This document shows positions 35,415 through 39,568 of a stretch of DNA of 64,000 nt, piece after piece. The position numbers were made by a program, and so were the translations under genes. How positions within the stretch are numbered: position 1 is the first letter of the stretch; the number at the start of each line of letters is the position of its first letter. The notes beneath the pieces are model-generated. The model saw only the letters and a program-made list of their open reading frames with translations. It was not told the origin of the DNA and ran no database searches. Source of the DNA: Escherichia phage TH12; sequence record MT446390.1; one strand, given 5' to 3'.

Positions 35415-36008
35415 ATGAACACACTGAAGAAACTTGTTGAATTCATCCGCACTAAACTGGGTACTGCTATGGCTAAAAATCTGACTGTCGAAGAACAGTA
35501 TAACGCAGCTGCAGATAAGTTGATTACCCAAATCAAAGAACTAAAAACGGCTTCTGTTAAATCTATTAATGAAGAAAAACGTATTCGCGAACTTGTTATT
35601 GAAAAGAATAAGCAAGCCGCTTCTAAGGAACGTGAAATTCGTAAGCTCCTGGCTGAAGGACAAGATGTTACCATGCATGCTAAGCTTGGTCTTCTGTATC
35701 GTCGAACTGCCGAACAACTTAATACAAAAGCTGACGGGTATGCCGCTATGCGAATTGAAATTGCTCGTAAGGTGGTTGAACTTGATGATGCTCGTCAGAA
35801 TCTGGCAATCAAACTCGAATACATTCGTGAAACTCGAGCAGCCAATGCCCTTGGTATCTCTACGGCTGATGATGTAATTGAAATCGCTGCACTGACTAAG
35901 GTTGATATCGAAGACACTCTGACTCGTGTTGAAACGTTCAATGGTACTCCAGCCGGTGTCGAAACCACTTCTGCTGATGTACAAGAATATATTAACTCTT
36001 TGAAATAA
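35415..36008 (+). CDS. coiled-coil protein, possibly PspA/IM30-like
   Basis: Start at ATG 35415 ([23 protein letters not shown]...); long amphipathic helices reminiscent of PspA; followed by a terminator. Confidence 0.45.
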
Positions 36009-36016
36009 AATAATAC

Positions 36017-36038
36017 GGAGGACTCCGGTCCTCCTTTT
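36017..36038 (+). terminator. rho-independent terminator
   Basis: GGAGGAC-tccg-GTCCTCC followed by TTTTGG. Confidence 0.6.
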
Positions 36039-36057
36039 GGATAATAAAGGAGTTAAC

Positions 36058-36654
36058 ATGCGAAACCAAAATAATGATATTGACTCAATGTTCGAAGAGT
36101 TCCGAGATAAGGTAAATCCACCTACGTCTTTAGTTGATTCATTACGATATGTTGCAACCGGACGTAAATGGTACTGGTCGTCTTCTTATGAGACAACTGA
36201 ATATGCAAATAACCGAAAATCTTTATTAGCCCCAGGTATTATGATTCATGATATCGGAGCTATTGCTAAACTAGTTGCAGACCATGATATTAGATTCACT
36301 GATTTCGTTGCTCCTACGTGGTCTGTTTGTTGTTTAAACACCGAATGGGACTATATCAGTGAACGTTCAGATGATTACGTAGGCTTTAGAGACAAGCTTT
36401 TAAGGTCTAACATGTTTTATATTGATACAGAAGTTCTTGTCAATAATAAAAAATACTACTTCACTTTAATCGTCGATTCTGAAACTATGTATGAAGGCAA
36501 GCCTTTGCTTAAGAGAGTTGATGCTTTAAGTGCTATTGATGCGCTTTATGAAACTATGGTTGTTAGTCCTAATTTCACTAACAATTTAATCCTTGAGCAA
36601 TTTATTATGGAATGTAGAGAATATGTCAAAGCCAACCCTATACATGCCAAGTAA
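36058..36654 (+). CDS. hypothetical protein
   Basis: Start at ATG 36058 (MRNQNNDIDSMFEEF...) with RBS AAAGGAG. Confidence 0.5.
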   Translation: MRNQNNDIDSMFEEFRDKVNPPTSLVDSLRYVATGRKWYWSSSYETTEYANNRKSLLAPGIMIHDIGAIAKLVADHDIRFTDFVAPTWSVCCLNTEWDYISERSDDYVGFRDKLLRSNMFYIDTEVLVNNKKYYFTLIVDSETMYEGKPLLKRVDALSAIDALYETMVVSPNFTNNLILEQFIMECREYVKANPIHAK

Positions 36655-37015
36655 GCCCTGGGCGTATGAATACAAGCGTAAATTAATCCCAAATGAAGTA
36701 CTATTTGGCCCTATTTTAGCTTTAGCATTTTTAATCTTTATGATTATAGGAGCCGTTTTAGATTCTAGTGAAGTTATATCGTCTGATGCAGCATTTTCAT
36801 TAATGTTCGACGCACCACTTATTGTACCGTTTTTATTAATGCCTATTAACTGGATGGGATATTGGTACCAAGGACGTCATCACAGAGCCCGATTAAGAGA
36901 ATGGAAAGTTCAGTGCGCAAAAGCCCAAGCTCAGTATGATGAAGCTGTTAAAAAGTATGAATATGAAGAAGCTATGGAATTCGTTAAGGAAATAAGATGC
37001 AAAAGCCTTAACTGA
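36623..37015 (+). CDS. hypothetical membrane protein
   Basis: Start at ATG 36623 (MSKPTLYMPSKPWAYEY...); two hydrophobic helices. Confidence 0.45.
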   Translation: MSKPTLYMPSKPWAYEYKRKLIPNEVLFGPILALAFLIFMIIGAVLDSSEVISSDAAFSLMFDAPLIVPFLLMPINWMGYWYQGRHHRARLREWKVQCAKAQAQYDEAVKKYEYEEAMEFVKEIRCKSLN

Positions 37016-37113
37016 ATTTATGCTGTTTACGCTTCTCAAATGATTAGTTATAATGAACTCCTAGCTAAACGTGAAAATGAAACAATCGAAAACTTTATTA
37101 AGGAATGTAGAAA

Positions 37114-37419
37114 ATGAGTAAGATTATTGAAATTAAAGTACCAGAGTTTAATGATGCCAAATCCGCTTCAGATGCAATTTATAAACTTCTGAATCAAGCT
37201 GAACGTATCGAAGAAGAAGCAACAAAGATCGCAGACCAATATGCAGTATCATTTTCTGTAGGTGATTATGGTAGCGGCCGTACTTATTATCCTAAGGGTG
37301 AAATCGTATCCCAGTGGATGAAAGATGAAATTGAAAATAATGGTGGCGATGTTAAGCGTGAAGGTAATGGTTACGTTATTACTGAAGGTGCTTGGGTTTC
37401 GTCTTCTGCGTTGTGCTAA
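37114..37419 (+). CDS. hypothetical protein, paralog family member A (C-terminal GAWVSSSALC)
   Basis: 101 aa ORF with RBS; shares YG-G-TY--PG and C-terminal GWVSSS--C motifs with the next two ORFs. Confidence 0.5.
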   Translation: MSKIIEIKVPEFNDAKSASDAIYKLLNQAERIEEEATKIADQYAVSFSVGDYGSGRTYYPKGEIVSQWMKDEIENNGGDVKREGNGYVITEGAWVSSSALC

Positions 37420-37428
37420 GGAATCATT

Positions 37429-37701
37429 ATGTCTAAAGAACAAACCGAACTGGCTGAAGCTGTAGCAAAAATCTATGCAGCTATTGAGGCTGCCAAAGAA
37501 ATTGCTAATAAACAAAACACAACATTCAACTTGTATCCAGCTTATGGCATGGGTGGAACCTATCATTCACCAGGACATCTTAAAGCCGATCTTGAACGTT
37601 GTACAAAAAACGGTTATGCTGAATGGGCCGACGTTTACCAATACGACTACAACTTGAGCCTTGAAGATGGTGGTTGGGTTGCATCTTCTCACACTTGTTA
37701 A
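37429..37701 (+). CDS. hypothetical protein, paralog family member B (C-terminal GGWVASSHTC)
   Basis: 90 aa ORF; conserved junction TAAGGAATCATTATG. Confidence 0.5.
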   Translation: MSKEQTELAEAVAKIYAAIEAAKEIANKQNTTFNLYPAYGMGGTYHSPGHLKADLERCTKNGYAEWADVYQYDYNLSLEDGGWVASSHTC

Positions 37702-37710
37702 GGAAATCAT

Positions 37711-37908
37711 ATGTCTCGTGAATTAGATTGTGCTGTACGTACGGCCGTAGCTGCTCTAGAAAACCTGTTCCAGATTGCAACCGAAGAGCGTGAAGAAGTT
37801 ACATTGTGGATTGAAGATAATGCAGGTCTGAATCTCCAGGACGCAATCTCGTTATCAAATAATAGTATTACTGTTCAAGGCTGGGTATCATCTAGTTATT
37901 CTTGCTAA
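37711..37908 (+). CDS. hypothetical protein, paralog family member C (C-terminal QGWVSSSYSC)
   Basis: 65 aa ORF; conserved junction TAAGGAAATCATATG. Confidence 0.5.
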   Translation: MSRELDCAVRTAVAALENLFQIATEEREEVTLWIEDNAGLNLQDAISLSNNSITVQGWVSSSYSC

Positions 37909-37913
37909 AACAG

Positions 37914-37950
37914 TTTACAACAAGATAGGGCTATGTTATAGTAGTCCTAT
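37914..37950 (+). promoter_or_regulatory. early promoter / stem-loop cassette
   Basis: GTTTAC -35; element ATAGGGCTATGTTATAGTAGTCCTAT, one mismatch from the 31040 copy. Confidence 0.6.
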
Positions 37951-37970
37951 CAAATTAAATGGAGACAACA

Positions 37971-38210
37971 ATGGTTTATTACGAAAGTATAGGAACCGAA
38001 GTAGTTGCTAAAACTATTACTCGTGAAAAGTTTGCAAAGATATTCGATATGCGTTATAAAAAATCTGAACACAAAGGCATCCGATTCGAAGATGCGCACT
38101 GTACAATTTGCCCTTATAATGAAGACATAAACGGCACAATCGTTCCATTAGTAGAGGCTTCACATGACGACCTCTGGGATGAATATAATATCGCATGTCG
38201 CGAAATTTAA
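37971..38210 (+). CDS. hypothetical protein
   Basis: Start at second ATG (MVYYESIGTEVVAK...), which has RBS GGAGACAACA. Confidence 0.5.
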   Translation: MVYYESIGTEVVAKTITREKFAKIFDMRYKKSEHKGIRFEDAHCTICPYNEDINGTIVPLVEASHDDLWDEYNIACREI

Positions 38211-38235
38211 GTAATCTAAATTCGAGGAAAATATT

Positions 38236-39192
38236 ATGATGTTAGTTATTGGTTCTCGTGCACTTCACTATCACGGTCTTATTGATTCTAGCGCTATCAA
38301 AAATAGTGACTGGGACTTTATTGCGGACCAAGGTTCTTGGAATGTATTCAAAAATCAAATGATGGGTGTATATGTTCACCAAGATAACCCTGATGTCCAA
38401 GTTTTCAAATGCTTCCATAATGGACGCGAAACTCATTTTGAAGCATATATTGTTCCGGCAATCACTAATGTCCGTGAATTAGTCGGTGAACTCACTCCTG
38501 AAGATTTCACGTCTTCTTATGACCTTTTAAAATACGCCAAGAAAAATTTGACTAAAGACCGTTTGAACGGGTTTTACTGGGCAACTCCTGAGATGTGTCT
38601 TGCAATTAAGATGTCTCATCGTTTCAAGAAAAATAATCCATTCTTTTTAAAGACTATGAACCATATTCAGTATCTTCGTGGTAAAGGTGTTACACTTAAC
38701 GATGAACTTACTGAAATTATGCTGAAACGCCAGAAAGAAACCTTGAACTATGCTCACCCAGTTCTTGACACTTCTAAAAGCGCATTCTTTAAAGATGACA
38801 TCTATACGTATGACCATGATACTATTCACGAAGCCATTGCACTAACAGACCGTCCAGCGTATACATTTTATATGAAAGATGGTTCTGAAGTCATGACCTC
38901 ACGCGAGAAGTTCGAATCATTACCAGAAATGGTCAAATTAGCCGGCGTATACGAAGAATCATGTGTACTAGCGTTAGAACGTTCTCAGATTCCTAATAAC
39001 TTTGAAATCCATCCACGTGATAGTTTTATGATGGCATTAGAAAAAGTCTGTACTTCAATCACGTCAGGCTGGTTCCGTGAATACGCTTGGGAAAACTACA
39101 GCAAAGTTGTAAGTATGTACCAAAGCTTAGGACATGACGATTATGTAAAACGTTTTAAACAAAATTTCCATATGGTAAAACCTTTCAAATAA
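38236..39192 (+). CDS. hypothetical protein with possible nucleotidyltransferase-fold motif
   Basis: 318 aa; N-terminal VIGSRALHYHGLIDSSAIKNSDWDF resembles the G[GS]...DxD NTase signature with a longer spacer. Confidence 0.5.
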   Translation: MMLVIGSRALHYHGLIDSSAIKNSDWDFIADQGSWNVFKNQMMGVYVHQDNPDVQVFKCFHNGRETHFEAYIVPAITNVRELVGELTPEDFTSSYDLLKYAKKNLTKDRLNGFYWATPEMCLAIKMSHRFKKNNPFFLKTMNHIQYLRGKGVTLNDELTEIMLKRQKETLNYAHPVLDTSKSAFFKDDIYTYDHDTIHEAIALTDRPAYTFYMKDGSEVMTSREKFESLPEMVKLAGVYEESCVLALERSQIPNNFEIHPRDSFMMALEKVCTSITSGWFREYAWENYSKVVSMYQSLGHDDYVKRFKQNFHMVKPFK

Positions 39193-39204
39193 TTTCGCAA
39201 AACT

Positions 39205-39242
39205 GTTTACACAATTATAGGACTATGTTATAGTAGTCCTAT
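39205..39242 (+). promoter_or_regulatory. early promoter / stem-loop cassette
   Basis: GTTTAC; exact copy of the 26-nt element ATAGGACTATGTTATAGTAGTCCTAT at 39217-39242. Confidence 0.6.
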
Positions 39243-39262
39243 TAAAACATGAGGAGAATATT

Positions 39263-39568
39263 ATGAAATTAGGCGAAACCAACCGAATTGGTCTTTTAAC
39301 TATATTTGTATCACTTTTTTACGTAGCTCTTTCTGTTGCAGTATTACAAAAGGCTTACGATATGGATGGTGTTCCTGGTTTTGTATTCTTATCACCATTT
39401 TTATTATTCGTCGGGGCTTTGTTATTATATGCCACGACTAGTTTTGACCATAACGTCTGGGTTAATTATAAATGTAAATTGTCTGAAGAAGAACACGCAG
39501 AAGCTCGTAAAAAAGCTATTGAATCTACCAATCTAGAAAATTTCATTAAAGAATGTCGAGGAAAATAA
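39263..39568 (+). CDS. hypothetical membrane protein
   Basis: 101 aa; two hydrophobic helices; RBS GAGGAGAA. Confidence 0.5.
   Translation: MKLGETNRIGLLTIFVSLFYVALSVAVLQKAYDMDGVPGFVFLSPFLLFVGALLLYATTSFDHNVWVNYKCKLSEEEHAEARKKAIESTNLENFIKECRGK

Follow-up and report, generated by a model that had tools for sequence, protein, structure and literature searches.

Three consecutive small genes of Escherichia phage TH12 and a nucleotidyltransferase gene that follows them look like parts of one phage-specific early-infection system. The window analysed here is a 64,000-nucleotide stretch of this phage (MT446390.1), in which the triplet ends at position 37908 and the enzyme gene starts at 38236 on the same strand. 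As we envisage it, the module would consist of an array of 1-6 small acidic proteins, whose sole universal feature is a G-W-x-S-S-(0-3 aa)-Cys-COOH tail, and of one MenT/ANT-like nucleotidyltransferase whose gene comes shortly after the array in the same orientation. The reading we favour, with a probability of a little under 40%, is that the tail docks in the enzyme and that its serines act as acceptors of a nucleotidyl group (NMP). We infer the physical docking, the covalent modification, the early timing and the biological role from sequences and structure models.

The three small genes

The initial annotation reported three ORFs of 101, 90 and 65 amino acids with similar C-termini, and their coordinates and endings are exactly as claimed. 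ORF1 (37114..37419, plus strand) ends in EGAWVSSSALC, ORF2 (37429..37701, plus strand) in DGGWVASSHTC and ORF3 (37711..37908, plus strand) in QGWVSSSYSC. The tails themselves, W-V-S-S-S-A-L-C (37393..37416), W-V-A-S-S-H-T-C (37675..37698) and W-V-S-S-S-Y-S-C (37882..37905), all on the plus strand, follow the common pattern G-W-V-[S/A]-S-S-x-x-C, with ORF1 reading A before W; the columns of the ORF1 tail are invariant in two of our alignments (A1 and A4). A W..SS.{0,3}C ending is carried by only 3 of the 717 ORFs of at least 35 codons in the six frames of the window, and these are ORF1-3. Pairwise BLASTP comparisons among the three proteins give modest but significant E-values (8e-5, 3e-4 and 6e-4). 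The suggestion of a diverging family of paralogues is right.

ORF1 and ORF2 match phrog_899 (E 1e-22 and 3e-18), and ORF3 matches phrog_4882 (E 1e-36). The YG-G-TY motif noticed earlier in ORF1 and ORF2 is real, and an alignment of 59 members shows it to be a hallmark of the family; ORF3 has the N-terminal helix and the tail only. ORF1 belongs to a subfamily of about 100 amino acids with YGSGRTYYP, ORF2 is the most typical family member, with an N-terminal helix, an FxLxPAYGMGGTY hairpin and the tail, and the subfamily of ORF3 follows the pattern MSRELDCAVRTA...GWxSSSxxC. The three ORFs lie in the same frame, separated by the 9-nt spacers TAAGGAATCATTATG and TAAGGAAATCATATG. The gene junctions do repeat, as had been observed, because each spacer consists of the stop codon TAA and a GGA(A) Shine-Dalgarno sequence. 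This layout indicates that the genes are probably translationally coupled, as is usual in T4-type phages; in phage VR7 an identical 9-nt spacing runs across five tail-bearing genes.

ORF1-3 are under purifying selection. Synonymous and nonsynonymous codon differences, counted against two related phages and summed over the three genes, stand at 24:5 and 19:1 (2:1 and 8:0 for ORF1; 12:1 and 5:0 for ORF3), and the serines of the tail are encoded by TCG/TCT/TCT in ORF1, TCT/TCT in ORF2 and TCA/TCT/AGT in ORF3. The mostly synonymous differences and the differing serine codons argue that these are real genes whose tail is selected as protein.

In the structure model of ORF2 a beta-strand of the fold contains the tryptophan, with S-S-x-x-C coming after it at the C-terminus. 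The tail has a pLDDT of 78-86 in the small-protein model and may be partly packed on its own fold, so that it need not be a free tag. The roles previously suggested for the tail fare unequally. Lipidation finds no footing, as the N-termini of ORF1-3 are hydrophilic helices with neither signal peptide nor lipobox, and the cysteine is the last residue, not at the CaaX position -4; metal binding is conceivable, and the evidence favours a recognition tag, given that the tail is portable across bodies and tightly linked to one nucleotidyltransferase gene. Searches of Pfam, NCBIfam and PADLOC with the small proteins gave no meaningful match, and the weak matches to Peptidase_S78_2, E217_Gp32 and PDC-S49, all under the cut-offs, were rejected. 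T4 internal head proteins were considered for the L/I-x-E sites near the N-termini, and were dropped because a capsid-targeting sequence is not conserved and the promoters look early.

The small-protein family in other phages

Sought in other phages, the tail motif is found on about 300 distinct proteins of 51-167 amino acids with a median pI of 4.35. They end in the consensus W-x-x-S-S-(0-3 aa)-C, in its fuller form G-G-W-[VQ]-S-S-S-x-x-C, and the distance from the tryptophan to the cysteine, over 249 distinct tails, is 7 residues in 86% and 5 in 12%. An alignment of 22 proteins from five subfamilies leaves M1, W, S, S and the terminal C as the only invariant positions; the tail residues W, S, S and C are likewise invariant in the alignment of 59 members. 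Most members combine an N-terminal helix with an FxFxxxYGMGGTYYP hairpin (consensus YGMGGTYYP). When 1.84 billion representatives were searched exhaustively with a family profile, 71 matched (clusters at 50% identity), with the tail motif terminal in 60 of the 66 inspected and two more ending in ...WVSSTQECN. Four repetitive proteins of 2289, 1846, 1001 and 938 amino acids (P0198, P0211, P0208 and P0247) were taken as spurious because they match a short internal stretch of the profile repeatedly and lack the tail.

The strict tail is also carried by proteins that go unrecognised by the family HMM, of 52, 139-159 and 74 amino acids, the last with two tags; the same tail on such different bodies thus behaves as a portable tag. 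The 74-aa subfamily, absent from this window, carries an internal tag, DDWLNSSCYGEE, and a terminal DGxIWxPSSC (L003 3137-3361, L002 2688-2912 and 34 other loci). In many other members the acidic linker ahead of the tail contains further, partial W-x-S-S repeats, as in ...DWSSSTESGWISSSDNC.

Homologues of the small genes are present in many T4-like genera and beyond. ORF1, ORF2 and ORF3 each have their own orthologues in other genera, namely in Gaprivervirus VR7, Marfavirus Marfa, Mosugukvirus PM2, Aeromonas phage CC2 and Erwinia phage Kaldavass. The arrays comprise 5 genes in Klebsiella phage Marfa, 5 in coliphage VR7, 3 in Pectobacterium phage PM2 and 2 in the Erwinia jumbo phage Kaldavass (366 kb), and elsewhere reach up to 5-6 members drawn from at least five old subfamilies. 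The existence of separate orthologues for each gene and of larger arrays of several subfamilies makes the triplet a reduced ancient array, and the part of the initial annotation that proposed local amplification is not upheld.

The nucleotidyltransferase

The gene at 38236..39192 (plus strand) encodes a protein of 318 amino acids, composed of an N-terminal DUF7277 of the Pol-beta nucleotidyltransferase type and a helical DUF7275 (Pfam E-values of 3e-27 and 8e-79). It is a MenT/ANT-like nucleotidyltransferase with an intact catalytic motif. The residues G6 S7, D25 x D27 and E69 of DUF7277, and K125, H128, H194-D195, H198, E240-E241, E248-R249 and C272-T-S-I-T-S-G-W-F-R of DUF7275, are all invariant in an alignment of 42 sequences. 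Among 86 enzymes associated with tagged proteins, G6 and S7 are kept in all 85 that have a residue there, D27 in all 86 and D25 in 84 (Glu in the other two), while position 69 is Glu in 77 and Asp in 6. Motif I of the Pol-beta superfamily and the acidic residue of motif II are thus present, with 17 residues between the G-S pair and the D against a textbook spacing of 9-13; the invariant K125 in AIKMSHR resembles motif III, and motif IV is not assignable. The structure model (pLDDT 92.3, pTM 0.86) shows the bi-lobed MenT fold, to which some 150 further conserved helical residues are added at the C-terminus, with no structural match. The sole match in a PDB sequence search, whether with the single sequence or with a profile, was PsaB, which is spurious. 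Sequence models other than DUF7275 and DUF7277 match the enzyme only weakly or spuriously.

A tblastn search places the enzyme family in 733 of 50,697 phage records, and it comprises more than 2,000 protein clusters. Its carriers include T4-like coliphages of therapy collections, phages of Aeromonas, Acinetobacter and Pseudomonas, and jumbo phages; T4 is absent among the tblastn matches listed. No fusion of enzyme and tag was found among the 120 best homologues of the enzyme.

Association of the small genes with the enzyme

In the phages Marfa, VR7, PM2 and Kaldavass the array is followed by a gene for some 300-320 amino acids homologous to that at 38236-39192. We collected 80 viral loci through the 318-aa protein alone and scanned them for W..SS.{0,3}C endings. 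Between one and six tail-bearing ORFs were found in 78 of the 80. They number 202 among 13,176 ORFs, against 1 in 67,545 ORFs of shuffled loci; 198 of the 202 lie on the strand of the enzyme, and 190 end less than 3 kb upstream of it. The pairing persists at about 40% enzyme identity, in jumbo phages and across phage families. It also holds in the reverse direction: two divergent small proteins were found by sequence alone, and the enzyme gene lies directly downstream on both contigs that are long enough. Where small genes were counted (73 loci with at least one), the enzyme is accompanied by one in 15 loci, two in 21, three in 11, four in 8, five in 17 and six in 1.

When the 2,574 ORFs in the neighbourhood were clustered, the small family proved to be the only other conserved gene family of these loci. 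No gene family outside the small-protein clusters occurs in more than 31 of the 80 loci, and a Pfam scan of 98 downstream ORFs revealed no recurrent third gene. NAMPT, metallophosphatase, ligases, RlaP, Macro and Nudix were considered as a third component and rejected, their occurrences being scattered.

These counts bear on the view that the two parts are not directly coupled, the tail being recognised on the host side (by a protease, a PDZ-like domain or a metal) or forming a structural metal or redox site, and the enzyme being a mere syntenic neighbour in an accessory island. One T4-like enzyme locus (L026, IMGVR_UViG_650627040_000001) would suit it, having an intact enzyme gene with all conserved residues and no tail ORF, and so would the confinement of the family to accessory early regions, which are generally mosaic. 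Yet pairing, order and strand are kept down to about 40% enzyme identity while no other family is so retained, and the strand and distance figures are not easily attributed to chance or plain synteny; we regard this view as improbable. In L026, tblastn found no trace of the small genes present in its close relatives.

The module is essentially confined to phages, since a search of 185,579 species genomes gave only five matches to the enzyme, all of them on contigs of metagenome-assembled genomes (MAGs); all five have upstream tail ORFs under a relaxed second serine. The tail family is likewise phage-restricted. This distribution, the gene order and the array sizes must be weighed against the possibility that the small proteins inhibit or regulate the enzyme in the manner of a toxin-antitoxin system. 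The enzyme would then be a MenT-like nucleotidyltransferase acting on host or phage tRNA or other RNA, and the small proteins would be pseudo-substrate inhibitors or timers whose tail plugs the active site. MenA1, a 68-aa protein encoded directly upstream, neutralises MenT1 by blocking its active sites (PMC10435456), and the gene order of the module is the same. The acidity of the small proteins (median pI above) is what would be expected of nucleic-acid mimics, and genes for tRNA or RNA ligase lie near the module in several unrelated phages. A single copy would suffice for inhibition, however, whereas the arrays contain up to six paralogues, some with only the tail in common; the conserved element is a Ser/Cys tail in place of the helix of MenA1; and near confinement to large virulent phages is unexpected for addiction modules. 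We consider inhibition unlikely, if a serious contender.

The RNA ligase genes and tRNA clusters are situated within a few kb of the enzyme (L088 51-944; L095 2064-2723; L096 5847-7984; 32902-33056 in the window, where they are tRNA-Met and tRNA-Arg), and are a weak hint that the enzyme may be directed at RNA or tRNA.

Four distant homologues of the enzyme, in Streptomyces phage Annadreamy, Gordonia phage ClubL, Mycobacterium phage WXIN and Vibrio phage RYC, have no tagged partners. Twenty enzyme positions keep the same residue in all or nearly all of the 86 tag-associated enzymes and differ in all four tagless ones, among them R165, Y172, H174, C272, S277 and R281 (86 of 86) and R129 (82 of 86). 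They are candidate tag-contact residues, in a comparison that is confounded by phylogeny because the four tagless homologues represent only two or three deep lineages. The tagless enzymes are shorter, and directly downstream of them lie one or two different conserved small proteins with a Tyr/Ser-rich motif (TGYY[DN]SWD in Annadreamy) and a shared C-terminal stretch (L095 4630-5322; L096 4600-4890; L097 4609-4917; L098 4587-4958). These downstream proteins of the actinophages and RYC look like a second type of partner for the same enzyme family.

A proposed role for the tail

All structural relatives of the enzyme pass NMP to hydroxyls: MenT to the 3'-OH of tRNA, ANT(2'') and LnuA to those of sugars. 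Such relatives, together with the finding that one enzyme meets many bodies which all end in one invariant Ser-Ser...Cys tail, speak for a tail that docks and for serines that act as acceptors. The tail would be a portable tag that docks into the 318-aa enzyme; the hydroxyls of the invariant serines (W+3 and W+4) would accept the nucleotidyl group, and the terminal cysteine and carboxylate would position the tail or join in follow-up chemistry. The modification may switch or arm the varied N-terminal bodies, as effectors or clients, at an early stage of infection and so serve the takeover of the host or counter-defence. By analogy, one enzyme with many differently bodied tagged proteins can be read as the signature of tag-plus-processing-enzyme systems. 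Two considerations weigh against the serines as acceptors: to our knowledge, the known enzymes of the MenT family use tRNA, not proteins, and a small gene upstream of a nucleotidyltransferase gene would fit the inhibitor order of toxin-antitoxin-like systems equally well.

A more far-reaching version, which we put forward tentatively and with more doubt than belief, is that large virulent phages possess an unrecognised protein-tagging system. In it, a MenT-like enzyme would nucleotidylylate a portable W-x-x-S-S-x-x-C tag on changing small effectors, or activate the tag for Ser-Cys chemistry, and the products, conjugates with nucleotides or modified C-termini, would serve to take over the host or to counter its defences.

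The constancy of the tail also bears on the idea that it is an unmodified handle, tethering small 'specificity' proteins whose bodies direct the enzyme to tRNAs, host proteins or defence factors. Such adaptors would account for the many bodies served by one enzyme, the strict same-strand adjacency and the large extra conserved domain of the enzyme. A docking handle has no obvious need for two invariant serines and a terminal cysteine at fixed spacing, though, and binding by the bodies is unsupported; we think adaptors rather unlikely.

The cysteine always lies C-terminal to the serine at a spacing of i+2 to i+4, which as a pattern resemblance only is compatible with a thioether ring, and AviCys formation in epidermin-type peptides uses a C-terminal S-x-x-C. 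In a pathway resembling those of RiPPs, the enzyme would activate the serine (with NMP or phosphate), elimination would yield dehydroalanine, and addition of the cysteine would close a lanthionine-type ring or a related C-terminal modification, giving an active protein end. Tandem precursors beside one enzyme would recall the multi-precursor RiPP clusters, but no dehydratase or cyclase (LanB/C/M/KC/L), HFCD decarboxylase or protease recurs near the module, and a conserved 'core' with a variable 'leader' is the reverse of what RiPPs display. We know of no serine elimination driven by a Pol-beta nucleotidyltransferase, and hold this pathway to be very improbable.

Comparison with known systems

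Proposed nucleotidylylation of proteins would, by analogy, have its precedent in GlnD/PII, GlnE/GS and MntA/HepT (HEPN-MNT type VII toxin-antitoxin), in which Pol-beta enzymes put NMP on a side-chain hydroxyl of a partner encoded nearby. The acceptor in those systems is a tyrosine in a folded loop, whereas the acceptor proposed here is a serine of a C-terminal tag. From MenA1-MenT1, MenAT and AbiE the module is set apart by several features. At E<=1, PADLOC finds no AbiE match for its enzyme, and Pfam none beyond DUF7275 and DUF7277, including none to DUF1814; the enzyme has the additional 150 or so conserved C-terminal residues; it has 1-6 upstream partners in place of one; what defines these partners is a C-terminal Ser/Cys tail, of which descriptions of MenA and AbiEi make no mention; and the module resides in virulent phages rather than bacterial chromosomes. 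Nor does it show the one-to-one gene pairing of type II and type VII toxin-antitoxin systems. ANT(2'')-Ia and LnuA, unlike the module, modify small-molecule antibiotics, with neither protein partners nor a DUF7275 extension.

With PEP-CTERM/exosortase systems and Nif11/NHLP RiPP clusters the module shares the combination of one enzyme gene and several proteins that have a short terminal signature in common and are otherwise unlike. It differs from them in chemistry and location, has no membrane anchor or secretion signal and is not homologous; in the module it is the C-terminal 'core' that is conserved, and a nucleotidyltransferase that serves as partner.

Full-text searches of the literature for DUF7275/DUF7277, the RB69ORF names, the tail motif and phage nucleotidyltransferases or AMPylation yielded no account of the module. 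A survey of jumbo phages covers RlaP and CCA-adding nucleotidyltransferases and does not include this family; the 318-aa enzyme itself is not assigned to RlaP by Pfam. The entries phrog_899, phrog_4882, DUF7277 and DUF7275 give no function, and link neither the PHROGs to each other nor the small proteins to the enzyme. Neither the superfamily of the enzyme nor the pairing of a nucleotidyltransferase with a small gene upstream is of a new kind. The novelty lies in the portable C-terminal tag, in arrays with several partners and in the confinement to phages; covalent tagging, if confirmed, could be categorically new.

Both parts of the module are annotated as 'hypothetical' nearly everywhere, and one tag with one nucleotidyltransferase unites dozens of unrelated-looking small ORFs into a defined, testable system. 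Should the tag prove to be an acceptor, a novel type of protein modification would have come to light in viruses; inhibitors or adaptors would make the module the first case of a MenT-type enzyme carried by phages under multi-partner control. Either way, the module offers a concrete handle on the early accessory genes of T4-type phages, and the tag regular expression with the DUF7275 model makes a simple annotation rule.

Genomic setting and expression

The window derives from a Mosigvirus, that is, an RB69-like coliphage of the T4 type, and its interval 36000-39300 shares 98.7% identity with Escherichia phage CCU7 and 98.5% with Shigella phage Shf125875. The triplet belongs to an early accessory region flanked by the tRNA genes and the lysozyme gene e, and adjoins homologues of T4 e.3-e.6. 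Between the triplet and the enzyme gene lies an ORF of 83 amino acids (37959-38210; phrog_3723), which is not core to the module because only about 12 of the 80 enzyme loci carry it. The RB69 counterparts, in order, are ORF139c+138c (ORF1), ORF137c (ORF2), ORF136c (ORF3), ORF135c (the 83-aa ORF) and ORF134c (the enzyme). In RB69 (AY303349.1, L099, 1935-2241) the orthologue of ORF1 is broken into ORF139c (71 aa) and ORF138c (33 aa), either by a frameshift or by a sequencing error; if the split is real, the first gene is dispensable in this laboratory strain.

Two sites resembling T4 early promoters were found on the plus strand, each with 10 of 12 consensus matches. The first (GTTTACG-N17-TATAAT, 37026..37054) is directly upstream of the triplet, and the second (TTTACA-N17-TATAGT, with TG before the second hexamer, 37914..37942) precedes the 83-aa ORF and the nucleotidyltransferase gene. 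Judged by these sites, the triplet and the enzyme cassette would both be expressed early. The annotation of a related phage places a T4 middle promoter in e.3, shortly before the triplet begins. An RNA hairpin with an 11-bp stem and no U-tract (37924..37951, plus strand) separates the triplet from the next cassette; it is unusually stable (dG -16 kcal/mol, z = -6.2, none of 200 shuffles as stable), and a terminator is annotated at its position in related phages. The hairpin and the -10 element of the following early-type promoter overlap.

A second family of small paralogues, predicted to be membrane proteins, flanks the triplet at 36593-37015, 37041-37118 and 39263-39568. Its members share a C-terminal ending of the form F-[IV]-K-E-[IC]-R-..., as in EFVKEIRCKSLN and ENFIKECRGK, and Pectobacterium phage PM2 has several such genes in a run. 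A remnant of 25 codons, MISYNELLAKRENETIENFIKECRK, overlaps the start of ORF1 through ATGA, where RB69 has a full e.3 gene. The AAGGAA that encodes the K-E of the membrane-family motif also serves as the Shine-Dalgarno sequence of the next gene.
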